Positions 3,743 to 27,810 of a stretch of DNA of 32,000 bases are shown one piece after another; positions within the stretch are counted from its first letter, which is position 1, and each line of letters begins with the position of its first letter. The notes under the pieces were generated by a model. That model saw only the letters and a list, made by a program, of their open reading frames with translations. It searched no databases and had not been told where the DNA came from. The stretch is taken from positions 3,540,001 to 3,572,000 of the forward strand of contig NC_009483.1 in assembly GCF_000016745.1 (NCBI RefSeq). Direction: 5' to 3'. Origin of the DNA: Geotalea uraniireducens Rf4 (GTDB taxonomy: Bacteria > Desulfobacterota > Desulfuromonadia > Geobacterales > Geobacteraceae). The position numbers and the translations under genes are program-made.

Positions 3743-4104
3743 TGCTATACCCCCCGGTTTAAAACTGTCAGTAGTATAATTATCGGCTGACCCCGCCGAG
3801 ACTTAAGGAATTTTAAAACGTATTTTTATTATTTTTCAAACATGCCGTAGTGTTAATTAATAAATTTTTGCATGCTGCAAGATTACTCTAAATAAACCGC
3901 GTTTCGTTACGACCGATTACCTGTGAAAAAACAGTATGTTATAAAACTATCCATGCCACTTCAGTATACTATTGAATTTTAAATATGATGGTGGATTTGA
4001 GTAAGAAGAAGAACGATCTGTGTTGATCAGGCAAGCTGCCGGGCAACACGTAAAACAAGAAATTTTATTGTAAAATTTTTTAACAATTTATTATTGCCCG
4101 TTCC

Positions 4105-4149: not shown

Positions 4150-4235
4150 TAAATCCCGACAAAGCCAACCCCTTCGTGAGGGGGGGAACGGAAAGCCACG
4201 GGCCTCCGGAATGGAGACAGCCGAGCCGCCAAAGG
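4150..4235 (+). promoter_or_regulatory. candidate GEMM-I-type cyclic-dinucleotide riboswitch aptamer
   Basis: Reads CGACAAAGCCAACC, then the hairpin CCCCUUC-GUGA-GGGGGGG (4169-4186, GNRA loop), then AACGGAAAGCCACGGGCC, then a second hairpin CUCC-GGAAU-GGAG flanked by CGG...CCG. This order matches the GEMM-I consensus as I remember it (..GGCAAACC-stem-GNRA-stem-GGGACGCAAAGCC-CCGG..). Its 3' end overlaps the terminator stem. Confidence 0.5.
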
Positions 4236-4332: not shown

Positions 4333-6135
4333 ATGAAATTCATTTTTCCCTGTGTCGCTTCGTTCATGCTTACTGTCGTTATCACGCCGCTGGTCATCCG
4401 CTTTGCGAAGGCTTGCAAGTGCCTGGATGTACCGGGCGGGCGGCGGGCGCACAAAAAGGTAACCCCACGATGGGGGGGAGTGGCGTTCTTTGTCGGAGTG
4501 CTGCCATTTATGTTCATGGAAAACGAAAGCGGCGCCCTGACATCCTTCATCGTCGCTTCGTGCTTTCTGGTCGGCATGGGGATCATAGACGACCTTAAAT
4601 CGCTTGGATGGAAAACGAAATTTGCCGGTATGGCGATAGCTGCAACGATAGTCATATTTGGCGGGAATATCGCTGTGCATCACATCGGGACCTACGGTTC
4701 CCTGGGCAGGCTGGACCTGGGGCGGCTCAGTATCCCCTTTACCTACCTAAGCATCATCGGCATAACAAACGCCATCAACCTTCTCGACGGTCTTAACGGC
4801 CTTGCCGGCGGTGTATCGCTGCTGGGGTTTCTGTTTATGGGGATTGCCGCTGTCATCGCGGGCAATATCGTGGTTGCATTGGTCTGCTTCGCCTTCGTGG
4901 GAGCACTGGGCGCGTTTCTCCTTTATAACTTTCCCAACGCCAGGATCTTCATGGGGGACTCGGGAAGCACCTTTCTGGGCTTCTCCCTTTCCATCATGGC
5001 CGTATTCCTGACCCAGGATGCGAACTCGTCCGTGGATTCGATGTTCCCGGTACTCGTGCTTCTCATTCCCATATTCGATACTCTCCGGGTGCTTTTCGTG
5101 AGGCTCCTGAACGGAAAAAATCCGTTCCAGGCAGACAACCTTCACCTGCATTACCTGATCGTAGAAAACCTTTCACCTATGAAGGTGGCGCTTCTGTTCT
5201 GGTCATTGACGGCAGTGTTCGGCAGTATTGCTCTCACCCTTACCGGCAAGACGTCGGTGTCATACCTTGCCGTAGTGCTGTATGCCTCTTTGCTCTTGAG
5301 CCTGTTCGCCATAAGCCTTACACAGAGGCGGCCTCAGGAAAAAGGCCGTCTCAAGACGCTGCGGCCGGCCGGTATGAGCGCGGATTCGTCCGTCCTCATG
5401 CCGTATGACGATGCCGGCCCGGACTTTGCCCGAAAAGGAGAGATGATGATGACACTCAAATGGCTGGTGGTCCTGGGAATTGTGCTGCTGACCGCTCAGG
5501 TGAGCGCCGGGGAGCCGCAGGACCTCAAAACCCAGAAGGACAAGGTAAATTACGCCATCGGCGTCAACATGATCAACAGCTTGAAGATGCAAGGTGTCGA
5601 GATCGACCTGGACCTCGTGATAAAGGGAATGAGGGACGCGCACTCGGGCGGAAAGCTCCTCCTGCCCGATGACGAGCTCCGCAAATCCATAGGCGTGTAT
5701 CAGACTGCGGCCCGGCAGAAGCAGGCAATGGTCAGGGTGATCGCGGCGGATGAGAACAAGAAGGCGGGCGAGGCGTTCCTGGCTGCGAATGCGCAGAAGG
5801 AAGGGGTGGTGACCCTGCCGAGCGGGTTGCAGTACAAGACCCTCAAGGCTGGTGACGGCATGAAACCGACGGATGCGGACACGGTGGAGGTCAACTACCG
5901 GGGGGCTCTCATCAACGGGACCGAGTTTGACAGTACCGAACCAGGGAAACCCGCGGCCTTGAAGGTTGCCCAACTCATCGCCGGCTGGAAGGAGGCGATG
6001 AAGCTCATGCCGGTGGGCTCGAAGTGGCAGATCTTCATTCCTTCCCGGCTCGCTTACGGTGAGCGGGGATCGGGAAAACAAATCGGGCCGAACGCAACGC
6101 TCGTTTTTGAAGTGGAGCTCCTCGCCATCAAGTGA
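4333..6135 (+). CDS. GT4-family polyprenyl-phosphate HexNAc-1-phosphate transferase (WecA/MraY-like) continuing in frame, with no stop, into an FKBP-type PPIase
   Basis: 600-aa uninterrupted ORF. Residues 1 to about 335 are multi-TM and carry GT4 motifs: VTPRWGGVAFF, NAINLLDGLNGLAGG and FMGDSGSTFLGF. Residues from about 371 onward form a complete Mip/FkpA-like protein. AGGAG lies 6 nt before the ATG at 4333. Confidence 0.8.
   Translation: MKFIFPCVASFMLTVVITPLVIRFAKACKCLDVPGGRRAHKKVTPRWGGVAFFVGVLPFMFMENESGALTSFIVASCFLVGMGIIDDLKSLGWKTKFAGMAIAATIVIFGGNIAVHHIGTYGSLGRLDLGRLSIPFTYLSIIGITNAINLLDGLNGLAGGVSLLGFLFMGIAAVIAGNIVVALVCFAFVGALGAFLLYNFPNARIFMGDSGSTFLGFSLSIMAVFLTQDANSSVDSMFPVLVLLIPIFDTLRVLFVRLLNGKNPFQADNLHLHYLIVENLSPMKVALLFWSLTAVFGSIALTLTGKTSVSYLAVVLYASLLLSLFAISLTQRRPQEKGRLKTLRPAGMSADSSVLMPYDDAGPDFARKGEMMMTLKWLVVLGIVLLTAQVSAGEPQDLKTQKDKVNYAIGVNMINSLKMQGVEIDLDLVIKGMRDAHSGGKLLLPDDELRKSIGVYQTAARQKQAMVRVIAADENKKAGEAFLAANAQKEGVVTLPSGLQYKTLKAGDGMKPTDADTVEVNYRGALINGTEFDSTEPGKPAALKVAQLIAGWKEAMKLMPVGSKWQIFIPSRLAYGERGSGKQIGPNATLVFEVELLAIK
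5443..6135 (+). CDS. FKBP-type peptidyl-prolyl cis-trans isomerase (Mip/FkpA-like) with its own signal peptide; possible independent translation from an internal start
   Basis: AAGGAG (5435-5440) precedes the triple ATG at 5443/5446/5449. The product starts MMMTLKWLVVLGIVLLTAQVSAGEP (signal peptide). An FKBP_N dimerisation helix region follows, then the FKBP core VEVNYRGALINGTEFDS...IAGWKEAMKLMPVGSKWQIFIPSRLAYGERG...ATLVFEVELL. Confidence 0.6.
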   Translation: MMMTLKWLVVLGIVLLTAQVSAGEPQDLKTQKDKVNYAIGVNMINSLKMQGVEIDLDLVIKGMRDAHSGGKLLLPDDELRKSIGVYQTAARQKQAMVRVIAADENKKAGEAFLAANAQKEGVVTLPSGLQYKTLKAGDGMKPTDADTVEVNYRGALINGTEFDSTEPGKPAALKVAQLIAGWKEAMKLMPVGSKWQIFIPSRLAYGERGSGKQIGPNATLVFEVELLAIK

Positions 6136-6650: not shown

Positions 6651-6761
6651 ACGCGGATAAATGCAGATTTAAGTCAAAACCGAAAATCACCGGGCGGAAC
6701 AATGGTCAACGATGAAACAACAGGAACATGGGTGCAATCAAGCACAAAAGGAGGGAATATC

Positions 6762-9700
6762 ATGTCCAGGTGCAGATTTTTGACATGGATGAGTCTGGCA
6801 TCGGCGGCAGTCGCCCTTGTCAGCGTATTTGACCCGGGCCGCGCCCTTGCCGCCCCCGTGACGGGGCCCGGCAGTGTCCCGGACTACTTCGAGACCCCAA
6901 ACTGGGCCAACAGCCCCCCCCTGAGGAAATTCGTCGACTCGCTGGCGCCTCTGGGGTGCACCACGCCGAACACCCTCGGCCAGTGTATTCCGGTTGCCGT
7001 CCCGGATACGACAACCTATCCGGGGTCCGATTACTACGAAATCGAGGTTGTCCAGTATCGCGAGCAGATGCATTCGGATCTTCCTGCGGTCGTCGGCAAC
7101 AAGATGGACCCTGCAGCCACAGGCGGGACCCTGCTGAGGGGGTACAGGCAGTTCAATACTGCCGATCCCAACCTGTTGACCCCCCACTACCTGGGCCCCC
7201 TGATCGTTACCAAGAAATACGATCCGCGATATGCGCCGGACGCACCCTTGCCGGGTGGCGGCACGAATGGGAGACCGGTGCGCATCAAGTTCATCAACAG
7301 CCTGCCCACCGGGGACGGCGGCTACCTATTCATCCCGACAGACACCACCGTCATGGGTTCGGGGATGTTTGAGATCAATTATGACCCGGTGACCAAGGCT
7401 CCCGGCCCCACGATCACCGGTGATTTCGCGCAGAATCGGGCCACCCTCCACCTCCATGGCGGCCACTCTCCGTGGATCAGCGACGGAACCCCCCACCAGT
7501 GGATCACCCCGGCTGGAGAGGTCACGCCCTACGCCAAGGGGGTCAGCGTGGCCTACGTGCCCGATATGTGGTTCGACGCGGCCGGGAACACGATTGCTGC
7601 CTGCGCGGGCCAGACGACCTGCGGGGTTGGGGGAGCGACGAACAATCCCGGTGCAGGCGCGCAGACTTTCTACTACACCAATGAGCAGAGCGCCAGGCTG
7701 CTCTTCTACCACGACCATTCCTGGGGAATCACCCGCCTCAACGTCTATGTCGGCGAGGCTGCGGGCTACCTGATTGAAGACCCCGTAGAGATTGCCCTGC
7801 GCGACGGCGGGACCATCAACAGCCGAACCTTCACCGCCGGGACGATTCCCACCGCCCAGATTCCTCTCGTCATCCAGGACAAGACCTTCGTGGACGGCAA
7901 CCCGGCCAGCCCGACTTACGTCCGCGCCACTGATCCCACCTGGAACTGGGGATCGGGCACGCCGGTCGGAGGCATTCGCCCGCCGGTCACCGGCGACTTC
8001 TGGTGGCCCCATGTCTACATGCCGGCCCAGAACCCGTTCAATCCCGACCTGAGCGGGATGAACGCCATGGGGCGGTGGCACTATGCCCCCTGGTTCTTCC
8101 CGCCGCCCCCGATATGCGGGTCCGACCCCGAAGCGGTGAAACCGTACTGCATCGAGTTTGGTACGGTCGCAAACCCCTATTACGACTGCGGCCCTGGCGG
8201 CCCTTGCACCAATCCGGGCCAACCGCCGGAGATCCCCGGCACCCCCAACGTATCATGGGGGGCGGAAGCGTTCCTGGACACCATGATGGTCAACGGAACA
8301 GTCTACCCGACTCTTCCGGTACAGGCGCAACCTTACCGCCTCCGGATCCTGAACGCCTCACACGACAGGTTCCTCAACCTGCAACTTTATAAAGCCACCC
8401 CTATCGTCAGCGGCATCACCGTTGTCACCGGGGGGACCGGTTATACTTCTGCTCCTACGGTCGCCCTCATCGGCGGCGGCGGGACGGGCGCCACTGCAGC
8501 AGCGACGATCGATCCGGCAACCGGCGCCGTTACTGCGATCGACCTTCTTACCGTGGGGAGCGGGTATACATCTCCTCCGGCTGTCTCCATCACGGGTGGC
8601 GGCGGAACGGGCGTCGCTGCAACAGCAGCAGTTTACACTGCCTTGACGGAAGTAGGCATGGTGCCTGCGGCATCGACCTCGGGCTTCCCTGCAAGGTGGC
8701 CGGCGGACGGCAGGGAAGGTGGCGTGCCCGATCCGGCGACGAGGGGCCCCGCGTTCATTCAGATCGGCACCGAAAGTGGCTTCCTGCCGGCGCCGGTGCT
8801 ACTGAACAACCAGCCTGTTGCCTGGAACCTCGACCCGACCATGTTCAACGTCGGGAACGTTCTCCAGCAGGCCGACGGAGGCGGCACGCTCTTCGTCGGT
8901 CCGGCTGAACGGGCGGACGTCATCGTCGACCTCACTAACTACGCCGGTCAGACCCTGATCCTCTACAACGACGCTCCCACCGCTTTCCCGGCGCTCGTCC
9001 CACAATATAACTACTACACGGGCGCCCCGGACCGGCGCGACATCGGCGGTGCAGCCCCAATCCCGCCGGGTTTTGGCCCCAACGTCCGGACCGTAATGCA
9101 GATCACGGTGGCGGGAACCGGCGGCGCCGCGCCCCCCGATGACTACAACCCGGCGACCCTGAACGCGCTGCAAACTGCCTTTGCCGGCGGTGCGACACCC
9201 GGCGTTTTCCAGTCGTCCCAGGAGCAGATCCCCGTGGGGCAGAGTGCCTACGATTCCACTTACAACACCACTTTCCCCGCCACCTGGCCGAACTGGGGCG
9301 TATCGAGAATCTCGGATAGCGCAATAAGCTTCCAGAAGGTTGATGGCACAATTGTGAGCAATTTCAAGATGAAGGCCAAGGCCCTCCATGACGAGATGGG
9401 CGAGACCTTCGACGACTACGGGCGGATGAGCGCCAAGCTGGGGCTCGAAGTGCCGTTCGTCAACGCCGCGAACCAGAACTTCATCCTCCAGAACTACGTC
9501 GATCCGGCCACCGAGGTCGTGAACAACAACGGAGTCCAGATCTGGCGGATCACCCACAACGGCGTGGACACACACCCCATACATTTCCACCTGTTCGACG
9601 TGCAGTTGCTCAACAGGGTTGGCTGGGACGGGTTCATCAGGCTCCCCGACCCCAATGAGCTGGGGTGGAAGGACACCGTCAGGATAAGCCCGCTGGAGGA

Positions 9701-10688
9701 CACGATCGTCGCGCTCCGGCCGACCACTCCCATAGTGCCGTTCTCGCTCCCCAACAGCATCCGTCCTCTGAACCCATCTACACCCTTCGGCTCCACGATG
9801 GGATTCTCGCAGCTCGACACGACGACAGGCGGAGACATTGTGCCGCCCCAAACGAACCAGTTGGCCAACTTCGGACTGGAATACGTGTGGCACTGTCACA
9901 TCCTGAGCCACGAAGAGAACGACATGATGCGGTCGACAATACTGAATCCCAACACCAGGGACGACATCCTCTGGAGGAACACCTCTAACGGCCTGAACGC
10001 GTTCTGGTACCTGGACGGGGTAACGCGCACGGCGTCTGCATATATTCCCTCAATGACCGATCAGAACTGGAAGATCGTGGGCAGGGGTGATTTCAACACT
10101 GACGGCAAACCCGACATCCTCTGGAGGAATACCTCCAACGGCCAGATCGCGGTCTGGTACATGGACGGGGTAACGCGCACCGGATCCGCATTCCTTCCCA
10201 CATTAACCGATCAAAACTGGAAGATTGTCGGTGTGGGTGACTCCAACAATGACGGAAAACCCGATATCTTCTGGAGAAATACCTCTAACGGCCAGAACTC
10301 GGTCTGGTACATGAACGGGGTAACGCGCACGGGGTCCGCTTATTTCCCCGTATTAGCCGACCAGAACTGGAAGATAGTGGGCGTACGCGACTTCAACGAT
10401 GACGGCAAACCCGACATCATCTGGAGAAATACCTCTAACGGCCAAAATGCGGTCTGGTATATGAACGGAGTAACGCGCACCGGGTCTGCTTATTTCCCCA
10501 CACTAACCGACCAGAGCTGGCAGATTGTGGGTACCGGGGACTTCAACAGCGATGTCTATCCGGACATCCTGTGGAGGAATACCACTACCGGAGCGAACAT
10601 GACATGGTATCTGAAAGGGATAACACAGATAGGGACGGGAACGATCGCCACACTTGCAGATCAAAACTGGAAGATTGTGGGACAATAG
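6762..10688 (+). CDS. large multicopper oxidase (OmpB/OmpC-like) with C-terminal FG-GAP/VCBS repeat domain
   Basis: All four MCO copper motifs are present: [23 protein letters not shown] and [14 protein letters not shown] prefer the start at 6762 (M21 of the ORF-track ORF 6702..10688) because AAAGGAGGG lies 6 nt upstream and a signal-like [20 protein letters not shown]...ALAAP follows. The C-terminus carries five repeats of the type [50 protein letters not shown]. Confidence 0.9.
9961..10685 (+). repeat. about 4.8 tandem copies of a 150-bp coding repeat (FG-GAP/VCBS blades)
   Basis: cgacatcctctggaggaa recurs at 9962 and 10112, with close variants (atatcttctggagaaa at 10263, acatcatctggagaaa at 10413, acatcctgtggaggaa at 10563) continuing the 150-bp period. 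Long identical runs recur, for example ggggtaacgcgcac and gaccagaactggaagat. Confidence 0.9.
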
Positions 10689-19656: not shown

Positions 19657-20387
19657 TTTACTGCCTCACAAGACCAGCCAAATGGATCGTCCTTTTTGTT
19701 GTCGAACCTGTCCAGCCACAAGAATATTGTTTGCAACAAGCGTACAATCATTTGCGCAACGAATTTGACAGGGTAAATCACGATTCCAACGACGTTGGGA
19801 TTGTTGCTGCGAAGCCCCGCAGGAGGGAAAATCGACAGTCCCCTCGGTAGCTCGTATGCCCAGCGGACCCAACGTCCTCCAAATGGAGTTATCTTGATCT
19901 CCCGAAAACCAGCATGCTTGCATATGGATTCAAGCCCATAGGACGTATATCTGAAAAAGTCATGGGGACCCTGATGTTCGGGATGTGCCATCGGCACCGT
20001 CATGAAAAGCTTTCCGTCGGGTTTGAGGACACGGTACATCTCCTTGACGCTTTCACGGGGCCATTCCAGATGCTCAAGCACCTGGGTGCACAGCACTGCA
20101 TCGAAGGTGCCATCTTCGATGGGCATGTCATGCAAGGGAGCGACGTAATCGAGGTTGGCATAGTTCCAGCGGCGTTCACCCACGGCTAAGTCGATTGCTT
20201 TATAGTTGCAATTGGAAAAAAACCTTTTGTAAACACACTCTCCCGCACCGGCATCCAACAGGGAGGCATTCTCCGGCAGGCTCTCCGCAACATACTTCAC
20301 GAAACGGGTTATATACCATCTGCCGACATCCTGTATTTTATTTCTCGCTGAAAAGTCCTCATTTATCATCACAAAGTACTTCCCCAT
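19653..20387 (-). CDS. class I SAM-dependent methyltransferase (Methyltransf_11-like)
   Basis: 244-aa ORF. Motifs: LLDAGAGECVY, FDAVLCTQVLEHL, LKPDGKLFMTVP. Its stop overlaps the next gene's start (ATGA at 19653-19656). An alternative start is at 20369. Confidence 0.82.
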   Translation of the reverse strand: MGKYFVMINEDFSARNKIQDVGRWYITRFVKYVAESLPENASLLDAGAGECVYKRFFSNCNYKAIDLAVGERRWNYANLDYVAPLHDMPIEDGTFDAVLCTQVLEHLEWPRESVKEMYRVLKPDGKLFMTVPMAHPEHQGPHDFFRYTSYGLESICKHAGFREIKITPFGGRWVRWAYELPRGLSIFPPAGLRSNNPNVVGIVIYPVKFVAQMIVRLLQTIFLWLDRFDNKKDDPFGWSCEAVK

Positions 20388-21648
20388 ACAAAAAATTGAA
20401 GTGGTTGGTTTTCAGAAAATGGTGTTGGAGAAAAAGGTTTACGACAAAGAACAGGCTGGTGGCAAACGCGAGGCCAAATACGCCAAAGTAATAATACAGA
20501 GCAATTTTTGCCGGAACATAGAATGTATAGCTGCATATCCCCAGGCGTGTTGGTGTTGACGTGTCGCCGAGCGCGAAATACGATGATGACGATATCTGTC
20601 CCATTACACCACCGGCAAACATGCCGGAGAGCCAGACCATGATCCACCATAATTCCCGAACATTGCCGGCGCTCACATTACCGTGTCCCACCAGCAGGCT
20701 CAGTACTGTCTGCCCCAAAAGCCCCAGCACCAGAAGTCCGACGAGGCTGATTGCGCCGACCTGCACCAGTTTCCGGTGATAGGCACGCCGAAAGCCCGCC
20801 TTGTCCCCCGCCTTGTGGAGCCGACTCAGCGCCGGTACCAATGGGGCAGCGAAAGCCTTGTTGAGCACCTGGCTGACCGCACCATAAATCTGCTGAGCCA
20901 GGTAATATAATGACAGGCTGCCACTGCCGGCGGTGGAGAGCAGAATGCGGTCCACCAGCGGGTCGGTCTTGTAATAGGCTGTCCCCAGCAGCAGGGGTTT
21001 GATGCGCTGCCAGGCTTGCCGGACAGAAGGGCATCTCAGGTCGGGGCGAACCGGACGCCCCATGCCGGGGGCAAGCAACAGGGTTTGCAGGCCCATGCGC
21101 AGGGTGCTGATCCAGGCAGCCGCGATAACCCCGAAACGGGGGAGCGCCCAGATCAACAGGAGCAAGGCAAAAGCACTGACCAGGATCGGGGTGAATTCTG
21201 CCCACAAAAACTGTTGCCTGGCGTGGTAGGCGGCCCATTGCACGCCATTGATCGCCGTAAAGACCATGCCGACGAGTTGGATGCGGGTAAGCGTTACCGT
21301 GAGACTTTGGCCGGTCTCGTTGAAGCCTGGCACAGTAAGGGGCACCCACCAGGGTGCCGCCATATAAAGAAGAACTGCCAACAGTGCGAATATACCGCCA
21401 ATAAGGACGAAAAATCCCCAAGTGTCATGGCGGAGACGATCTTCGCTTTCTCCCGAAAGAAGCGGCACGAGGACATGCATGAGCGATCCGCTGATGACCG
21501 CCAATACGAGCTGGGGGATCGTCATGCCGGCAAAAAGCGCGTCGGTCTCTACTCCCGGCCCCAGTTTGACAAGAACATACCACTGAAAAACAAAGGCGAG
21601 GCCGATGTTGGCAGCGGAAAGGAAGCCGAGTTGAATCGAGAGTTTCAT
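20359..21648 (-). CDS. MOP-superfamily polysaccharide/lipid-linked oligosaccharide flippase (Wzx/MurJ-like)
   Basis: 429-aa polytopic membrane protein with about 12 TM segments. The N-terminus (GPGVETDALFAGMTIPQLVLAVISGSL) resembles the MurJ/MviN family. It sits between the PCP and methyltransferase/GT genes. Confidence 0.65.
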   Translation of the reverse strand: MKLSIQLGFLSAANIGLAFVFQWYVLVKLGPGVETDALFAGMTIPQLVLAVISGSLMHVLVPLLSGESEDRLRHDTWGFFVLIGGIFALLAVLLYMAAPWWVPLTVPGFNETGQSLTVTLTRIQLVGMVFTAINGVQWAAYHARQQFLWAEFTPILVSAFALLLLIWALPRFGVIAAAWISTLRMGLQTLLLAPGMGRPVRPDLRCPSVRQAWQRIKPLLLGTAYYKTDPLVDRILLSTAGSGSLSLYYLAQQIYGAVSQVLNKAFAAPLVPALSRLHKAGDKAGFRRAYHRKLVQVGAISLVGLLVLGLLGQTVLSLLVGHGNVSAGNVRELWWIMVWLSGMFAGGVMGQISSSSYFALGDTSTPTRLGICSYTFYVPAKIALYYYFGVFGLAFATSLFFVVNLFLQHHFLKTNHFNFLYGEVLCDDK

Positions 21649-22895
21649 TGGCTGCCCTGACTGTTTATGCCCGTCCGCAACTTCTGAAAATTATCAAGTG
21701 CCAGAACCAACGCGCAGGAGCCGGCCAAGGCCGCTAAAAAGACGATCGTTACGATTTTTCTCCTTACCGGCTTGCTCCGCCTCTCCGGCACCTTTGCATT
21801 CTGCAGCACATGAAACGGCGAAACGTCCTTGACCTCGGACAGCTTCGCCACCTCGTACTGTTTGGCCAGCAGCTCCACCAGCGTCTCCTGGATCCTGAAC
21901 TCCCGCATCAGCCGCAAATACTCCTGTCCCAGCTGCGGCATACTTCCGACTGATGGAATGGAACTGCTCCCCTCGCCATTTCCCTCCAGCTTGACGATCT
22001 GTGCCTGCAAATTTGCCGCTGTGGATTTGGCCGTTTTTACCTCCTGGCTTGATTCGGTAAACTGCCTCCGGAAGGTGGCCAACTGCACCTCCTGAGCAGC
22101 AAGTTGGGCCCGCAACTGCGCCACTCCCTCGATGGTGGCCTTGGCCTGGTCGGTTACCGATACGGCCTTATTTTTTGCCTGAAAGGCTTTGAGAGCATCC
22201 TCCGCCTTTGCCAGATCGACACGGGCCGCAGCGAGGCGTTCTTCCAGATACCCGCGGTCCTTGCCGGCCGATGTCATGTTGAGCCTGGCGGCAAGTTTCC
22301 CCAGCTCGTCCACGTAAGCATTGGCCAGATCCGCTGCCCGCTTGGGATTCTTGTCGTCCACGGCAATGGTGATGACCCCGTCCTTTTTGCCTGCCGTGAC
22401 GATGACATTCTTATCCAGCGCCGTGTACACATCGGACCGAAACTTTGCCTCGTACAGATCCTTCAGCTTGAAGCGGTCGATAATCGGGTCCTTGACCGTC
22501 TCACTCTTCAGCATGGTCACATACAAGCCGGCCTTGGTCGCCCCCCCCAGACCACCACCGGCAATACCGGCAACACCGCCCAGACCGCCAAGTTGGGCCA
22601 TCATGGCCCCCATGACCCCTTTGTCGTCCTCTCTGGGCAGAATCATGGCCTTTGCAGTGTAGATGCCGGGGATCAGCAGAACGACAATGATACTGATAAT
22701 GGTGGCGACCAGGGTGATGCCGGCGATCAGCCGCCAGCGTTTGACGAACAGGGCCAGGTAGTCGAAAAGAGTGGGAGCAGGTTCGAGGTTCGAGGTTCGA
22801 GGTTCGAGGTTAGAACCAGCTTCAAGGTTCGAGGTTCGAGGTTCGAGGTTCGAGGCGCGAGGTTCGAGCTTGTTAGTATCGGAATGCTGCATCAT
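21645..22895 (-). CDS. polysaccharide co-polymerase / chain-length determinant (Wzz/GumC-like, no kinase domain) with a repeat-encoded N-terminal extension
   Basis: 416-aa ORF with the Wzz pattern: FDYLALFVKRWRLIAG plus TM1, a long coiled-coil periplasmic region, and a C-terminal TM (IVTIVFLAALAGSCALVLAL). GGAG lies 5 nt upstream of ATGATG. Residues 9-40 (LEPRASNLEPRTSNLE...SNLEPRTSNLEP) are encoded by heptanucleotide repeats. Confidence 0.85.
   Translation of the reverse strand: MMQHSDTNKLEPRASNLEPRTSNLEAGSNLEPRTSNLEPAPTLFDYLALFVKRWRLIAGITLVATIISIIVVLLIPGIYTAKAMILPREDDKGVMGAMMAQLGGLGGVAGIAGGGLGGATKAGLYVTMLKSETVKDPIIDRFKLKDLYEAKFRSDVYTALDKNVIVTAGKKDGVITIAVDDKNPKRAADLANAYVDELGKLAARLNMTSAGKDRGYLEERLAAARVDLAKAEDALKAFQAKNKAVSVTDQAKATIEGVAQLRAQLAAQEVQLATFRRQFTESSQEVKTAKSTAANLQAQIVKLEGNGEGSSSIPSVGSMPQLGQEYLRLMREFRIQETLVELLAKQYEVAKLSEVKDVSPFHVLQNAKVPERRSKPVRRKIVTIVFLAALAGSCALVLALDNFQKLRTGINSQGSQ
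22779..22866. repeat. two tracts of the heptanucleotide AGGTTCG (coding-strand CGAACCT) inside the wzz-like 5' coding region
   Basis: Tract A has perfect units at 22779, 22786, 22793 and 22800 and a degenerate unit at 22807. Tract B has perfect units at 22825, 22832, 22839 and 22846, a degenerate unit (aggcgcg) at 22853 and a perfect unit at 22860. Isolated AGGTTCGAG copies lie at 22917 and 22934, upstream of the start codon. Confidence 0.95.
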
Positions 22896-22951
22896 TTATA
22901 CTCCGTCAGAAAAATCAGGTTCGAGGAAAAAACAGGTTCGAGTTTTCTCAT

Positions 22952-23133
22952 TCCTTTATCCTCGCACCTCGCTCCTCGATCCTGCCGTTTTACCTCGCTC
23001 CTTTATCCTCGCACCTCGTTCCTCAATCCTGCCGTTTTACCTCGTTCCTTTATCCTCGCACCTCGTTCCTCAATCCTGCCGTTTTACCGCGTTCCTTTAT
23101 CCTCGCACCTCGTTCCTCAATCCTGCCTTTACA
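22952..23133. repeat. about 3.8 tandem copies of a 47-bp repeat filling the wza-like/wzz-like intergenic region
   Basis: tcctttatcctcgcacctcg(c/t)tcctc(g/a)atcctgccgttttacc(t/g)cg(c/t) starts at 22952, 22999, 23046 and 23093. The last copy is truncated at the TAA stop of the upstream gene (23129-23131). A period of 47 is not a multiple of 3, so the array is non-coding. Confidence 0.95.
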
Positions 23134-25681
23134 ACCCCGCCGCAACTATCACCCCTGCAGAAAGCGCGAGATTGCCGAGGATGACGGCTATGTCCTTGAT
23201 TTCACGCATCCAGGCGATTCTTTCAAATTTCTGGGGGACTATGATTGTATCGCCCGGCTCCATGGGAGTGGACATGAACCCGCAAAAGAACAGGTTCTTG
23301 AACATTGAAACCTGTTGCCGGCTGATGACCGTTCCGTCCGCACGGACAACATAGGTATCGCTTTCTTCCGCTTCCCTGGTCGAGCCGCCCGCTTTCCCCA
23401 GATAAAACTCCACATCTTCACCATCAATCGGGATAAAGCTGGTCGGGTTATAGACCTGGCCGAGGACATTCACTGCGTTCGGCACCTGGGGTACTTCCAG
23501 CAGATCCCCCCCCTTGAGTTCCACGTCATAGGGGGAGTCCCTGAACTTGTCGAGTTTATCCATGTTGATCACCAGCCGGCCCTCCGCCTTCGCCGCTTTC
23601 AGCAAAGCCACGATTCTTTGCAGGCTTTCCAAGGCTGCCCTGGTAGCCTCCAACTCCTCCTTCGAGGCGGCAACCGAGGCCACTTCCGCTTGCTTTTTCA
23701 GGATTTCCTGTTCGGTTTTTGCCACAAGCTCATCCATCCGTTTCTGCTGCAGCTCGCGGATGGACACGCGGGTAAACTTGGCGGCCCGCAGGTATGCCTT
23801 GTCGGTAAAGCCGCCGGCCCGCTCGATCAAGGTGCTCAGCTTTTCCCCTTTATAGATCGGGTAGACGCCGGGAAACCGGAATTCTCCCTGGAGGGTGACA
23901 TATCTCTCCTTTTCTTCGGCCCAGTTCGGAATTTTCCTGATGCTCAACTCGTCAAAGGGGGCAAGCATCAGGTTATCCTTCGGATTGCCTTTGATGGCCT
24001 CTTCCAGGTTGATTACGATGGGAAACGACGATACCGCCTCGCCGGTTTGCTTGATGCGGTTTATCTCGGCATTTTTCAGATAAGCGTTGATTTTGGGGTT
24101 GCCCGCGACCAAAAGGAGATCACGGACCGTCATATTGGTGAAGAGCCGGTATTCGCCGGGCCGTTGCACCTCCCCGTTTATCCTGATCCTGGGCATTTCC
24201 TCCATCTCCCAACGGGAGAATATCTGCACCTTGTCGGACTCCTTCAGTTCCAGGTCATGCTCGGGATCACCCGCAAGCGCCTTGGCAACATTGACGAAGA
24301 TTTTCTCCGGATGATAATCGGGCGGATAAAGCCGGGTGATTTCTGCGGCATCTTTATAATATTCGGGGAGGAGATTGTCCTGTAGCAACAGCTGGCTCAG
24401 GCGCATGCCGGGCTGGAGGGCGTAGTCCCCGGGGCGGAGCACATAACCGTCAAGTCTGACATGGTCCCGCAAGGTTATATCGATGGGGAAGATCTTGACG
24501 ACATCCAGGTCCTGGATTTTTATGTTCGCCAAGATCTGATCCAGGGATTTACCCCCACCCTTGGGATCGATGTTGAAATCGGCCACCACCTTCTTTTCAT
24601 GGGCGTCAACCCTGGAAATCTGCACCCTCTGGAGATAACCGGTAGGGAGAAAACCTTCCGCCAGCGCTATCAGATCACCCAGATCCTTCTCTTCTCTGAG
24701 CTCATAGATGGCGGGTCTTTTTACGTTTCCGGCGATTCCGGCAACTCTGCCGATAACCGGCACAAAGATGGTATCGCCGGGCTGGAGACGAATGTCCTTA
24801 CCCTTGTCCCCTTTGAGAAAGAAATCGTAGAGATCGACCGTTTCCACGACCTTCCCCCCCCGTTTAACCTGTATATTCCGCAGGGTGCCGGTTTTCAGCG
24901 GTCCTCCTGAGGCACTGAGAGCGTTGATCAGCGTCGAAAGCGGGCTCAGGTTATAATCGCCGGGTGCTTTCACCTCGCCGACCACATACACCTTGATGAC
25001 CCGCAGTTTCCCCATGGTCACATTCAGGTCGAAATCTTTGAAGATCTTCGACAGATTGGCTTTTAAAAGACCCGGCAGCCGATCGAAGGTAATCCCCCAG
25101 ACCTTCACGTTCCCCACCCTCGGGAGCACAATTTCTCCGCTCCGGTTGACCTCCAGTTCATGCGTCCCTTCGACGCCTCCCCAGAGATTGAGGATGATCC
25201 TGTCCCCCGGGCCGATGACGTAATCGGGACCGACCGGGATGTCGGAGAGCGGGGCGAAACCGGCCGCGGACGGTCTGAAAAAATTGTAACCGAACTGAGT
25301 GAGATTTTTTACCTGGTATGGCTGAGGATGGGCAGTTTCTACTGCCGCATCTTCGGCGAAAGCAGCCCTTTCAATGGCGGAAAGCTCCGCCTGATCCGCC
25401 TGTTCGCTTTCCACTCCGGCATATTTAGTCTTTTCCACGCCCCCCTCCGGCCTTGTGCCTCCGGTGCTTTTCAGGGGTGAAGTTTCTGTCGGACTCAGGG
25501 ACGGAGCTGGCGATGCGGTTACCGGTAAAGAAGGGGGGGCTGCGACTGGACTAGATGCTGACGGTAACGCTGATTTTGCAGGAAGGGATTGCGAAAGTCC
25601 CTCGGCAGAAACCCGATGGCAATGAAATAACATCAAAATACCCCACATCAGGGCAACAAAAACCAAATTTCCTCTTCTCAA
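23129..25681 (-). CDS. outer-membrane polysaccharide export protein (Wza/OPX family; Poly_export plus multiple SLBB domains)
   Basis: 850-aa ORF. Signal peptide: ...LMLFHCHRVSA-EG. A Ser/Pro-rich linker follows. Poly_export motif: YVIGPGDRIILNLWG. SLBB-like units (PGDY.L..G.RLS.LL) recur. The C-terminal segment is hydrophobic. The start is TTG at 25681, with GGGAGAGG 5 nt upstream. Confidence 0.88.
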   Translation of the reverse strand: MRRGNLVFVALMWGILMLFHCHRVSAEGLSQSLPAKSALPSASSPVAAPPSLPVTASPAPSLSPTETSPLKSTGGTRPEGGVEKTKYAGVESEQADQAELSAIERAAFAEDAAVETAHPQPYQVKNLTQFGYNFFRPSAAGFAPLSDIPVGPDYVIGPGDRIILNLWGGVEGTHELEVNRSGEIVLPRVGNVKVWGITFDRLPGLLKANLSKIFKDFDLNVTMGKLRVIKVYVVGEVKAPGDYNLSPLSTLINALSASGGPLKTGTLRNIQVKRGGKVVETVDLYDFFLKGDKGKDIRLQPGDTIFVPVIGRVAGIAGNVKRPAIYELREEKDLGDLIALAEGFLPTGYLQRVQISRVDAHEKKVVADFNIDPKGGGKSLDQILANIKIQDLDVVKIFPIDITLRDHVRLDGYVLRPGDYALQPGMRLSQLLLQDNLLPEYYKDAAEITRLYPPDYHPEKIFVNVAKALAGDPEHDLELKESDKVQIFSRWEMEEMPRIRINGEVQRPGEYRLFTNMTVRDLLLVAGNPKINAYLKNAEINRIKQTGEAVSSFPIVINLEEAIKGNPKDNLMLAPFDELSIRKIPNWAEEKERYVTLQGEFRFPGVYPIYKGEKLSTLIERAGGFTDKAYLRAAKFTRVSIRELQQKRMDELVAKTEQEILKKQAEVASVAASKEELEATRAALESLQRIVALLKAAKAEGRLVINMDKLDKFRDSPYDVELKGGDLLEVPQVPNAVNVLGQVYNPTSFIPIDGEDVEFYLGKAGGSTREAEESDTYVVRADGTVISRQQVSMFKNLFFCGFMSTPMEPGDTIIVPQKFERIAWMREIKDIAVILGNLALSAGVIVAAGL

Positions 25682-25780
25682 AGGGCCTCTCCCATATCTA
25701 GTTATATGTACAGATATCCGTTGGCGGCGGCTTCGGTACGAGCTTTATTTTATTGCCTAGGAGCATCGCTGACCGTTTCA

Positions 25781-25808
25781 TTTGTAAACATATGTTACAC
25801 ATTGTAAA
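25781..25808 (-). promoter_or_regulatory. candidate sigma70-like promoter of the polysaccharide operon, overlapping a near-palindrome
   Basis: The minus strand reads TTTACA (25808-25803), about 16 nt, then TACAAA (25786-25781). The near-palindrome TGTAAACATATGTTACA lies at 25783-25799. The site is about 100 nt upstream of the Wza-like start. Confidence 0.35.
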
Positions 25809-26091
25809 TGACAATAGCCGGTCTGTCGAGGCCGGGGATGAAAGAAAATAACGCGAATAAATGCAATAACAGTTTTATCTCAAATTGCAAAAAGTCAAGG
25901 CTGCTCCCGAGGAGGCTCTTATTGATTTGGAGGCGTTCCGCAAAGGAAGAGGTGCTGATTCGGGGTTTTTCAAGATGCAAATTTGCTGGCAGTTGTTCCG
26001 TGAAGAACCAGGGAGAATACGTGGGAAGCAGAACGCAGAGGCCTGTTCACAGCGGTTGAGAAGAGGAACCGCCGGGGATAAGCCGATATTC

Positions 26092-26119
26092 AAAGGGGAG
26101 CGATGGTTAGCTCCCCTTT
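26092..26119 (-). terminator. possible terminator hairpin downstream of the second MCP gene
   Basis: AAAGGGGAGC (26092-26101) pairs with GCTCCCCTTT (26110-26119) across an 8-nt loop. The minus-strand trailing T tract is weak (TTTGAATAT). Confidence 0.3.
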
Positions 26120-26181
26120 GTCGCATGGGTGAGATCCGTTTCCGGATTTTGAGACATGACGCAGCCTGACGATCGCCTGCG

Positions 26182-27810
26182 TTACAGCCTGAACTGCCCG
26201 ACCAGCGACTGGAGGGTTTGGGCCAGTTGATTGAGCTGCATGGCGGCGGCTGCAGCGTCCTGGGTCCCCTTGGCCGTGTCGTGGACGATGTCGGTGATTT
26301 GGTGCATGCTTCTGCTGATTTCGCTGGTGGTGCTGGTCTGCTCTTCGGCCGCAGTGGCGATCTGGTTGAACTGCCGGTTAAGGGCGTCGATTTGGCGCAG
26401 GATGTCCCTGAGCGCATCGCCGGAGCGGTGCGCTTCGCTTGCCCCGGCCTCGACCTCTTCGACCCCCTGTTTGATCGAGATGACCGCCGCATTCGTTTCC
26501 TTCTGGATCGTGGCGATCATGTCGGCAATCCTGCGGGTGGCCTTCGTCGTCCGTTCGGCCAGTGCCCTGACCTCGTCGGCCACCACGGCGAATCCGCGTC
26601 CCTGATCGCCTGCCCGGGCGGCCTCGACGGCGGCATTCAGTGCCAGCAGGTTGGTCTGGTCGGCAATGTCCTCGATCACCCCGATGATCTCGCCTATCTC
26701 GTCGGATCGCTGCCCGAGGCTCTCTACGGTTCTCGCGGCGGCCATGACCTGTTCGGATACACTGTTCATCTTGTTGATGGTCTGCTCGACCACAACGCTG
26801 CCGGTCTGGGCAGAATCGGTGGCCTGCCGTGCCTCATCCGCGGCCAACAGGCAGTTCTGGGCGATCTCCGAGGAGGTCAAGGCCATCTCTTCGCTGGCGG
26901 TGGCGACCGTCGCCGATTGCTGCGCAACCTTGTCCGCCCCTTCGGCGATCTGGTTCGAGGAACCCTGCACCTGGAGCGCGGCTGCGGCCAACTGGCTGGT
27001 GGTGCCGGCAACACGGCTGACAATGGTGTACAGTTTGTCCATGAACAGATTGAACGAAGTGCACATCTCGCCAATCTCGTCCTGCCTGCGGTAATCGAGG
27101 CGCCTCGTCAGGTCGCCCTCGCCTTCGGCAATGTCCTTGAGCAGATCGTGCATGCGGTTCAACGGATTGAAGAGCCGGCTGACGGCAAAGGCGCTGATCA
27201 GGCAGGCCAGCAGCAGGATGACGGCCACGATGGAGGCGACGACCATCTGCAGGTGGTGATAGGCGGCGAAGAACTCGCTCTTTTTCACCCCAACGTATAG
27301 CACCCCGACGATGTCGCCCCGTGCATTGCGGATCGGGTCGTAGGCAGTGAAGTATGGGGCGCCGAGGATCTCGGCCTCACCCCGGTACGGCACACCTTTC
27401 TTGAACACCGCCTCGTAGGCCGGCCCGGTCAGCTTGGTGCCGACGGCCCGGCTGCCATCCGGCTTGATGACGTTGGTCGATACCCGTTCGTCACCCATGA
27501 ATATGGTTGCCGTTCCGCCGCAGAGCTCTTTAAGCCTGTCGGGCAATTCGAAGTTGCCGTTGACGGTGTAGTCGCCGATCTTCAACCTGCCTTCAACGAT
27601 ATCGATATCGTTGCCCTTGTGTTTCAGCAGTTCCCAGAAGGTTTTGATCCTGGCTTCCTGAGAAACCCCGGCTACCCGCTTCAGTTCCTGGCTGAATTTG
27701 ACGAGACAGGCCGCCGTGACCGCTGCCAAGGCTACGGCGACGATCAGGGCGTTAACGGCAATAAACCTGGTTTTTATCTTCATGGTGGTTACTTCTGCTC
27801 CCTTCGACAC
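26182..27810 (-). CDS. methyl-accepting chemotaxis protein with Cache_3/Cache_2-type periplasmic sensor and HAMP
   Basis: 542-aa ORF. After TM1 comes [30 protein letters not shown]...[30 protein letters not shown], a Cache_3-Cache_2 fusion pattern. TM2 and HAMP follow. Conserved hairpin: [39 protein letters not shown]. The start is GTG at 27810 or ATG at 27783. Confidence 0.92.

Follow-up and report, generated by a model that had tools for sequence, protein, structure and literature searches.

In Neisseria, a heptanucleotide repeat in the coding sequence of pglE leads to phase variation (PMC7157529), and in Haemophilus the length of a 7-bp tract upstream of hmw1A and hmw2A sets the expression of these genes (PMC4235727). 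Here, we describe a junction built from similar units in Geotalea uraniireducens Rf4. It is located in a stretch of 32,000 nucleotides (contig NC_009483.1, positions 3,540,001 to 3,572,000), referred to as the window, and coordinates given without a locus number are those of the window. On its minus strand, a wza-like polysaccharide export gene is followed by a wzz-like chain-length determinant gene, and the spacer between them contains a 47-bp tandem array that is complementary to 7-nt repeats in the early codons of wzz. Common to pglE, hmw1A/hmw2A and this junction are tandem 7-nt units within a surface-glycan or adhesin gene or directly before it, a number of units that is polymorphic in close relatives, and the expectation that gain or loss of units switches or grades expression. 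Unlike these loci, which belong to host-adapted pathogens, that of Geotalea, an environmental metal reducer, has two opposed complementary families of heptads, GAGG-type and CCUC-type, around the start codon as well as a higher-order 47-nt repeat.

Multicopy heptanucleotide elements exist both between and within genes of Geobacter metallireducens, i.e., four units of GGACCGG at 49 sites and five units of MTYCTGA, and a regulatory role has been proposed for them (Aklujkar et al. 2009, PMC2700814). The Geotalea repeats share with them the bacterial family and the occurrence of short 7-nt arrays between and within genes. However, they differ from these four- and five-unit blocks in unit sequence and in forming opposed complementary arrays around a start codon. 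Repetitive extragenic palindromic (REP) sequences and bacterial interspersed mosaic elements (BIMEs) are strain-variable hairpin repeats between co-transcribed genes, such as malE and malF of Escherichia coli, and are believed to act via mRNA stability on how strongly one cistron is expressed compared with the next. REPs are defined by genome-wide multiplicity and the RAYT (REP-associated tyrosine) transposase. In Geotalea, imperfect palindromes are also found between co-directional operon genes and vary between strains, while, unlike in REP/BIME, the arms consist of 7-nt tandem units with many pairing registers and one arm reaches into the coding sequence (CDS).

Long-range pairings that couple translation, such as the MS2 coat-replicase "Min Jou" interaction and those of several ribosomal-protein operons, have the Shine-Dalgarno (SD) sequence and AUG of the downstream cistron base-paired. 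Similarly, in Geotalea one arm is at the end of the upstream cistron, within the reach of a terminating ribosome, and the other is near the downstream start. However, the Geotalea SD/AUG is predicted to be open in a loop, and therefore classical unmasking would not apply. Finally, in the group 1 cps clusters of Klebsiella and E. coli a stem-loop attenuator is predicted after wzc, between wzc and wbaP (PMC3438125). Here, the resemblance is a predicted structured spacer in a polysaccharide operon, downstream of export genes, but the wzc-wbaP attenuator is a small canonical Rho-independent hairpin, whereas Geotalea has hundreds of nucleotides of repeats in which a scan found no canonical terminator.

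The Geotalea element thus shares features with each known kind, fits the full definition of none and is nearest to the repeat-based, hypervariable cis elements at gene starts. The original prediction knew of no described element of this kind, and our searches agree with it. Rfam gives nothing in 22600-23400 at E <= 10, the plasmid and phage collections contain no similarity, which also speaks against a mobile-element origin, and a literature search with the heptad strings found no paper and no occurrence in the supplements of the G. metallireducens study (PMC2700814). We tentatively suggest that the 47-bp array is a strain-specific variable number tandem repeat (VNTR) expansion of the 5' arm of a repeat-built wza-wzz leader, and that the duplex formed by this leader may tune the expression of wzz. 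Judged from how it varies among strains, the junction may well be a fast-changing expression dial.

Opposed repeat arrays and their complementarity

The wza-like gene (23129..25681, minus strand, 850 aa) ends with a TAA at 23129-23131 according to the list of open reading frames (ORFs), and its product matches the Pfam families Poly_export (1.4e-18) and SLBB (2.7e-42). The wzz/GumC-like gene (21645..22895, minus strand) encodes 416 aa with matches to Wzz (1.7e-10) and GNVR (1e-5), identical to the G. uraniireducens Rf4 protein WP_011939899 / ABQ27232 in an exact protein match. The spacer between the two genes is 233 nt. Tandem Repeats Finder (TRF) detects in it an array with a period of 47, 3.9 copies and 95% matches (22947..23127, minus strand), which begins 1 nt past the wza TAA and stops 51 nt short of the wzz ATG. 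The claim that the array fills the spacer from the wza stop therefore stands, while the distance to the Wzz start had been put at about 56 nt. In the sense of the mRNA the unit reads GGCAGGAUUGAGGAACGAGGUGCGAGGAUAAAGGAACGAGGUAAAAC and can in turn be divided into about seven degenerate GAGGNNN heptads. This purine-rich array, below the G-arm, is 79% purine with 42% G and 11% C, and contains 14 GAGG against 4.9 +/- 1.9 expected. About ten sites in it resemble an SD sequence, with a predicted binding of -7 to -8.5 kcal/mol to ACCUCCUUA in an anti-SD duplex scan, stronger than the -6.1 of the real SD.

The C-rich counterpart, the C-arm, is found on both sides of the wzz start. Within the gene, TRF reports a period of 7 and 13.3 copies at 22779..22868 (minus strand). 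These coding heptads, (AACCUCG)n in mRNA sense, form two tracts with CUUGAAGCUGGUUCUAAC between them and occupy wzz codons 9-40; we count about 12 (13.3 by TRF, 9 by strict count). With 40% C and 17% G, they are translated into LEPRTSN repeats, which belong to the cytoplasmic N-terminal tail of Wzz. The unit of 7 nt is not divisible by 3 and lies in the 5' part of the ORF, as in the repeat of a contingency locus. In the 5' untranslated region (UTR) of wzz, TRF detects a 17-nt repeat with 2.0 copies (22909..22942, minus strand), each copy consisting of a C-arm unit and a U-run (CUCGAACCUGUUUUUUC / CUCGAACCUGAUUUUUC). These are the two AGGTTCGAG copies (22917-22925 and 22934-22942) that had been described as solitary and as flanking the SD. 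In fact, both are 5' of the SD in mRNA sense, and the SD/AUG counts as flanked only if the coding heptads are taken as the other side. The translation initiation region (22893..22908, minus strand) consists of a U-rich spacer, the SD GGAG at 22901-22904 and the ATG at 22893-22895, and its block CCTGATTTTTCTGACGGAGTATAAATGATGCAGCA is conserved in the intergenic alignment.

Two other explanations of the array can be set aside. A translated small ORF is ruled out by stops in every frame, as each unit contains TGA and TAA and its 47 nt are not divisible by 3; no minus-strand ORF is called there. The GGCAGG... of the 47-nt unit, read by eye, does not have the GG-N10-GC spacing of a sigma-54 promoter.

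Every 47-nt unit contains, on the plus strand, CCTCGCACCTCG(T/C)TCCTC, an imperfect reverse complement of the (GAGGTTC)n coding tract, as had been proposed. The proposed pairing of the untranslated array with the coding heptads is also borne out in the predicted structures. The minus-strand RNA of 22750-23150 folds with -150.2 kcal/mol against -118.4 +/- 5.9 for shuffled sequences (z = -5.4), and the RNA from the wza stop to +130 with -139.2 against -101.7 +/- 5.8 kcal/mol (z = -6.5). For the duplex between array and coding heptads the energy is -110.1 against -66.9 +/- 4.9 kcal/mol (z = -8.8), and none of 300 shuffles is as good. In this last control the two arms were shuffled separately, keeping their purine/pyrimidine bias, and the complementarity is thus real and no compositional artefact.

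The predicted helices have the expected form of GC-rich blocks of 5-6 bp (CGAGG:CCUCG), separated by small 1x1 or 2x2 loops that are mostly A·A; near-perfect runs of about 15 bp are predicted in two related loci, L006 and L017. The purine-rich array is unable to fold on itself, and its last copy folds locally with both 17-nt units (-27.6 kcal/mol, z = -3.6). At the DNA level, the 57 inverted pairs listed have arms of 24-39 nt, 70-83% complementary and spaced by 97-285 nt. The arms are not perfect complements and both contain A-rich spacers, therefore they are not recent inverted duplications. With blocks of only 5-6 bp, 70-83% complementarity overall and spacers of at least 97 nt, the cruciforms, inversions or deletions that had been proposed for the opposed arrays are unlikely, and an invertible promoter is rejected on the same complementarity.

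A conserved layout in a hypervariable junction

Relatives were retrieved via the Wzz protein and exact protein look-ups, a route that is biased towards intact ORFs, and alleles were compared by blastn of the window against the closest contigs, with identities given for the flanks. The variable part is a cassette at 22774..23138 (minus strand), reaching from the last wza codons through the entire spacer up to codon 41 of wzz. In the window the spacer of 233 nt has four copies of the 47-mer core and about 12 coding heptads. The allele with the most similar flanks (L033, 99.0% and 99.1%) has a spacer of 513 nt without any 47-mer or coding heptad. There, a cassette of 579 bp stands in place of the 365-bp segment 23138-22774 of the window, and the junction is unalignable by blastn. 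This cassette contains, in order, GTTCAAG-type heptads, a gene for a four-helix bundle of the 23S-rRNA intervening-sequence protein (IVP) family, AACCTCG x3 and AACTTTG x2; the last two are in the 5'UTR, and the N-terminal tail of Wzz is unrelated to that of the window. In a groundwater metagenome (L050, flanks 96.5-97.2%) the spacer is 109 nt, with one 47-mer and a truncated second copy, followed by 13 uninterrupted, near-perfect coding heptads. L039 (flanks ~96%) has a spacer of 96 nt, one 47-mer and four coding heptads, and L037 (flanks 94-95%) a spacer of 81 nt, one 47-mer and five coding heptads.

The 47-mer core AGGAACGAGGTRCGAGGATAAAGGAACGAG is found as a single copy just past the wza stop in L037, L039, L040, L017, L041 and L004, and therefore the four copies of the window are a strain-specific expansion. 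At 94-99% flank identity the copy number of the 47-mer is 0, 1, 1, 1 or 4, and that of the coding heptads 0, 4, 5, 13 or ~12, as for the repeats of contingency loci. Both arrays thus vary in the manner of VNTRs, and the junction in its entirety acts like an exchangeable allele. The original prediction named as its refutation that close relatives with normal locus function have no such array or an unrelated one; by this criterion it is weakened, as L033 lacks the array and the others have one copy. A four-copy array is therefore not required for an otherwise intact locus, and the theme is kept, not the array itself.

Two short-read contigs from independent assemblies, L047 (1-30) and L048 (1-30), end inside the coding heptad tract (TCGAACCTCGAACCTCG…), and both carry the exact MurJ-like protein of the window. 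The repeats break assemblies, therefore the junction will be under-represented in metagenome bins. The retrieved alleles are in frame, with the bias of retrieval mentioned above, apart from the ambiguous start of L017. At L017 5979-6030, the conserved ATGCAACAC start has a good SD, but its frame is shifted by +1 relative to the Wzz body past the heptads. Either this long-read metagenome-assembled genome (MAG) contains an indel error, or the allele is naturally frameshifted (OFF).

The same layout is found in nearly all repeat-bearing alleles, close or distant: a G-rich arm past the upstream stop and a C-rich arm by the wzz start, the latter just 5' of the SD, in wzz codons ~8-40, or both. It recurs in about a dozen related loci. 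In the ~16 modules the G-arm is 5' of the C-arm without exception, and G-arms are never found alone. The G-arm starts 1-5 nt past the upstream stop in seven loci, and in the intergenic alignment the C-arm ends ~11-12 nt upstream of the SD. Downstream, the block (C)CTCGAWCCTGATTTTTCTGACGGAGTATAAATGATGCAGCA is conserved, i.e., C-arm, U-rich spacer, SD and start. The fold from the stop to +130 has z = -2.0 to -4.0 in L039, L037, L041, L004, L017, L006, L040 and L018, and z = +0.6 and +1.1 in L042 and L002, both of which are without a G-arm (the spacer of L042 is only 60 nt). When the arms are shuffled separately, z is -3.7 to -4.7 in five loci.

The heptad variants switch together in both arms, from CGAGG/CCUCG as in the window to AUGUUCG/CGAACAU in L006 and GUUCAAR/YUUGAAC in L015, L033, L018 and L040. 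The purine core motif is kept in loci whose Wzz proteins are only 47-88% identical. Across loci the coding heptads are read in all three frames, in L033, L018 and L001 they are in the 5'UTR instead of the ORF, and the tail is unrelated at 99% identity; the constraint on them is therefore at the nucleotide and not at the protein level. In ~380 kb of retrieved loci the double-heptad motif YGAGGNNYGAGG is almost confined to the cistron junctions of exopolysaccharide (EPS) genes, sense upstream and antisense downstream, and the 32-kb window has only one module site.

In three relatives, IVP genes (PF05635, four-helix-bundle, Avd-like) lie between wza and wzz with heptad arms on either side (L033 2032-2610, L015 2692-3890, L040 2400-3000), and small coiled-coil genes are inserted likewise in L015. 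The flanks of L033 are 99% identical to the window, and the presence or absence of an IVP gene is therefore a strain-level polymorphism. L015 has three successive small genes between wza and wzz, each preceded by a hairpin, a U-rich run and an SD; such local hairpins, between co-directional genes, have z = -3.6 to -6.6. None of L005, L011, L015, L033 and L040 has an Rfam hit.

Possible roles of the leader

In the tunable leader that we suggest, a purine-rich, SD-like G-arm with GAGG cores at the wza stop would face C-rich heptad arms with CCUCG cores, two of them in the 5'UTR before the wzz ribosome-binding site and ~12 after it, in codons 9-40. Zipped together, the arms would make a long duplex of flexible register, in which GC-rich blocks of 5-6 bp alternate with small A-rich internal loops. 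This duplex would bridge the wza stop and the early wzz codons, with the SD/AUG left open in a loop. As all components are tandem repeats, slippage and allelic replacement could change the arm lengths quickly. Additional G-arm copies would sequester more of the otherwise naked C-rich, G-poor RNA, a plausible target of Rho or RNases, and mask the SD-like decoys of the array. The level of Wzz and the downstream product could thereby be tuned relative to Wza, through ribosome access or coupling at the wza stop, through the degree to which Rho or RNases can reach the transcript, or by both routes.

The repeats, their complementarity, the kept layout and the hypervariability are observed; that the duplex forms in vivo and affects expression we infer. 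When the copy number is varied in silico, a single copy of the array pairs with a fraction of 0.25 of the coding-heptad nucleotides in the predicted ensemble, and three or four copies with 0.69; for the C-arm of the UTR the fraction grows from 0.03 to 0.53. The 5' arm of the predicted long-range helix lies 1-5 nt past the upstream stop in the window, L039, L037, L041, L004, L017 and L006, which would place it within reach of a ribosome terminating on the upstream gene, as in a coupling stem. The wzz SD/AUG sits in a predicted loop at equilibrium, with a mean unpaired probability that is 0.49 across the SD (-14..-7) and reaches 0.58 across the initiation region (-20..+20), and the base-paired downstream SD/AUG of a coupling stem is thus not found in the predicted ensemble of the native leader.

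Several observations weigh against a regulated leader. The unpaired probability of the initiation region is 0.50-0.58 whether 0, 1, 2, 3 or 4 copies of the array are present in silico (in relatives it is 0.17-0.65 for -14..+3). The earlier suggestion that the array occludes or exposes the SD and start codon was dropped on this ground, and the simplest occlusion model fails. Duplexes within a locus (-43.3 kcal/mol) are hardly better than those between loci (-40.9 kcal/mol); there is little locus-specific covariation beyond the shared motif, and no clear signal of co-evolution of the arms. The counts of G:U and A:C, 21 versus 12, are biased by the predictor and do not separate constraint at the RNA level from constraint at the DNA level. 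The numbers of units in the two arms are also unmatched. A co-expansion of both arms is plausible in the window (14 versus ~12 units) and refuted by L050, with ~5 G-arm units versus 13 coding heptads plus UTR arms. C-arms exist without any G-arm in L042/L043 and L001, and L002 and L003, with Wzz ~72% identical, are without any repeats. The heptad is also found elsewhere, as a perfect 14-unit intergenic VNTR (AACCTCG)n right after a terminator hairpin in Vibrio vulnificus (L045 5033-5128), as a shorter array in Pseudoalteromonas sp. (L046 ~4029-4090), and as five heptads (GAACCAC GAACCAC GAACCTC GAACCTC GAACATC) in-frame in a UDP-sugar dehydrogenase-like CDS (…NHEPRTSNLEH…, L023 5515-5551). The last case shows that the heptad can colonise ordinary enzyme genes. 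Together with the repeat-free homologues and the unmatched arms, these occurrences imply that part of the pattern may be mutational and not selected.

It is somewhat unlikely, though a serious alternative, that the junction is neutral altogether. The repeats, heptads, 17-mer and 47-mer alike, would then be by-products of mutation, as slippage-prone simple sequence in a recombination-prone junction, or a selfish hairpin similar to REPs or miniature inverted-repeat transposable elements (MITEs). The spacer and the disordered Wzz tail, free of constraint, would tolerate them, and their complementarity would have no regulatory role. The complete exchange of the junction between 99% identical flanks, the variable copy numbers, the repeat-free L002 and L003, the ordinary VNTR of the identical heptad in gamma-proteobacteria, the in-frame heptads of L023 and the unrelated 131-132-nt tandem hairpin repeats at the same place in other relatives (see below) all agree with this, as does the abundance of function-unassigned multicopy heptanucleotide elements within and between genes of Geobacter genomes (PMC2700814). 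Against neutrality, the order from G-arm to C-arm and the anchoring to stop and SD are kept in ~16 modules and every close-relative allele, the purine core is kept across deep protein divergence, G-arms never stand alone, and the arms are imperfect complements with A-rich spacers in both, hence not recent inverted duplications. An ON/OFF contingency locus, in which slippage of the coding repeat frameshifts and thereby switches Wzz and the control of EPS chain length, with the 47-mer incidental or modulating the level as repeats close to a promoter do, is in our view distinctly unlikely. It would fit a unit that is not a multiple of 3 in the first 40 codons of a surface-polysaccharide gene, the length polymorphism in near-identical genomes, the 13 near-perfect units of L050 and the contigs L047 and L048 that break exactly in the tract, and it has precedents in pglE (PMC7157529) and hmw1A/hmw2A (PMC4235727). 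The differences between alleles keep the frame, e.g. 63 nt between 4 and 13 units. On the other hand, no unambiguous out-of-frame allele is seen, as the offset of L017 may be a MAG indel error, the 5'UTR heptads of L033, L018 and L001 cannot shift a frame, the degenerate heptads of many homologues would slip poorly, and the complementary G-arm is left unexplained.

Two further explanations are less likely still. The arrays might bind a protein, i.e., CsrA/RsmA on GGA-rich mRNA, an IVP/Avd-like protein on the arms or an omega-type ribbon-helix-helix (RHH) repressor on the DNA heptads, which we regard as very unlikely. The omega repressor recognises arrays of 7-bp heptads, both direct and inverted ones, and in the window both heptad orientations are present; IVP genes lie between heptad arms in L015, L033 and L040, and there are 16 GGA motifs in 182 nt, with another in the SD itself. 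However, 16 GGA is barely above the compositional expectation (11.7 +/- 2.3, p ~0.05), which weakens the idea of a CsrA sponge, and the GUUCAAG-type G-arms of relatives have no GGA. For an operator, a sigma-70-like promoter is missing in the wza-wzz spacer (consensus scan), and no candidate binding-protein gene is adjacent in the window, with no RHH gene among the four window ORFs scanned against Pfam. About as unlikely is a predicted intra-operon attenuator, formed by a hairpin of the last G-arm copy with the UTR C-arm and the following U-run, or an RNase III site separating the wza and wzz mRNAs. Such a site had been proposed in the original prediction, as had an uncoupling of wzz from wza, and both are speculative. 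For RNase III, the arms that flank the IVP gene in L033 are arranged in the way in which this enzyme excises the intervening sequences of 23S rRNA; its processing stems, such as the T7 intercistronic sites, have about two helical turns of dsRNA with few interruptions, and the 5-6-bp blocks with internal loops in the window would be a poor substrate. Hairpins directly before U-runs are predicted in the window (-27.6 kcal/mol, as above), L039 (-32, z = -4.9), L015 (-40 and -38.5) and L040 (-33.3), and the group 1 cps attenuator after wzc offers a precedent (PMC3438125). Nevertheless, the scan finds 0 canonical terminators in 22600-23400 and none at the modules of L039 or L015, and the hairpin loops have 18-30 nt instead of the 3-8 nt of a canonical terminator. 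A U-run before the SD is also present in the hairpin-less homologues L002, L007, L008 and L010, thus the U-run belongs to the ribosome-binding site and is ruled out as part of a terminator.

The tunable leader could further be one case of a wider phenomenon. It can be speculated, as a rather doubtful extension, that the opposed heptad arms are an undescribed class of modular RNA "zippers" at the EPS cistron junctions of Geobacteraceae, exchanged as cassettes between near-identical strains, sometimes with an IVP/Avd-like gene, in which the repeat number sets or switches the expression of the chain-length regulator. If so, a free-living metal-reducing bacterium would have a contingency or rheostat system. 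How long exopolysaccharide chains grow and how much is made depends on co-polymerases of the Wzz/GumC type, and in Geobacter-type bacteria exopolysaccharide shapes attachment to minerals and electrodes, the conductivity of biofilms and the immobilisation of uranium. A junction that is wholly different between 99% identical strains points to rapid heritable variation in the expression of surface polysaccharide, and phase or rheostat variation is hardly studied in environmental organisms such as Geotalea. A phased 7-nt duplex, with many registers and a length set by slippage, would be a simple evolutionary way to graded post-transcriptional control. Even if neutral, the junction would serve as a VNTR marker with which Geotalea strains can be typed from groundwater metagenomes, and it is known to break assemblies.

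Neighbouring features and other repeats

Tandem repeats of another kind are found directly upstream of the wzz homologue in two relatives, with a 132-nt unit x 3.2 in Pelotalea chapellei (L005 5377-5788) and a 131-nt unit x 4.7 in L011 (5250-5859). The two units share ATCGTGAGGTAATCG..GAGGCTAAAAA, and long hairpins are predicted for L011 (z = -5.35). Structured repeats in tandem seem to have a general hot spot upstream of wzz. In Photobacterium, Halomonas and Burkholderia, spurious small ORFs for (LEPRTSN)n are also called. The GGTTCGA of the heptads resembles the consensus of the tRNA T-arm, which may or may not be relevant.

In the window, the genes for the wza-like, wzz-like and MurJ-like proteins are located head to tail on the minus strand inside a long polysaccharide cluster, with the MurJ-like flippase third in the row (20359-21648, minus strand). 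An exact protein look-up with the Wza protein of the window gives no record. Between the wza-like start (25681) and an ORF similar to methyl-accepting chemotaxis proteins (26182-27810), there are ~500 non-coding nucleotides (25682-26181), which presumably hold the operon promoter and leader. A 205-aa Arg/Ser/Pro-rich ORF without a Pfam hit is called at 25875-26492 and is probably spurious.

At the gathering score, Rfam gives a single hit for the entire window, a c-di-GMP-I riboswitch aptamer at 4154-4233 on the plus strand (46.5 bits, gathering score 35). About 100 nt further downstream, a 600-aa ORF (4333-6135) begins at the edge of the polysaccharide cluster. At the 3' end of a 1328-aa ORF (6702-10688), a tandem repeat of 150 nt (also 300 nt) at 9962-10681 on the plus strand corresponds to units of ~50 aa, and looks like a protein-domain repeat rather than a nucleic-acid element. 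Finally, a 22-nt tandem repeat x 2.6, GGTTTACAAATAATCACAAAAT, is found at 751-807 on the plus strand, just upstream of an ORF that starts at 824.

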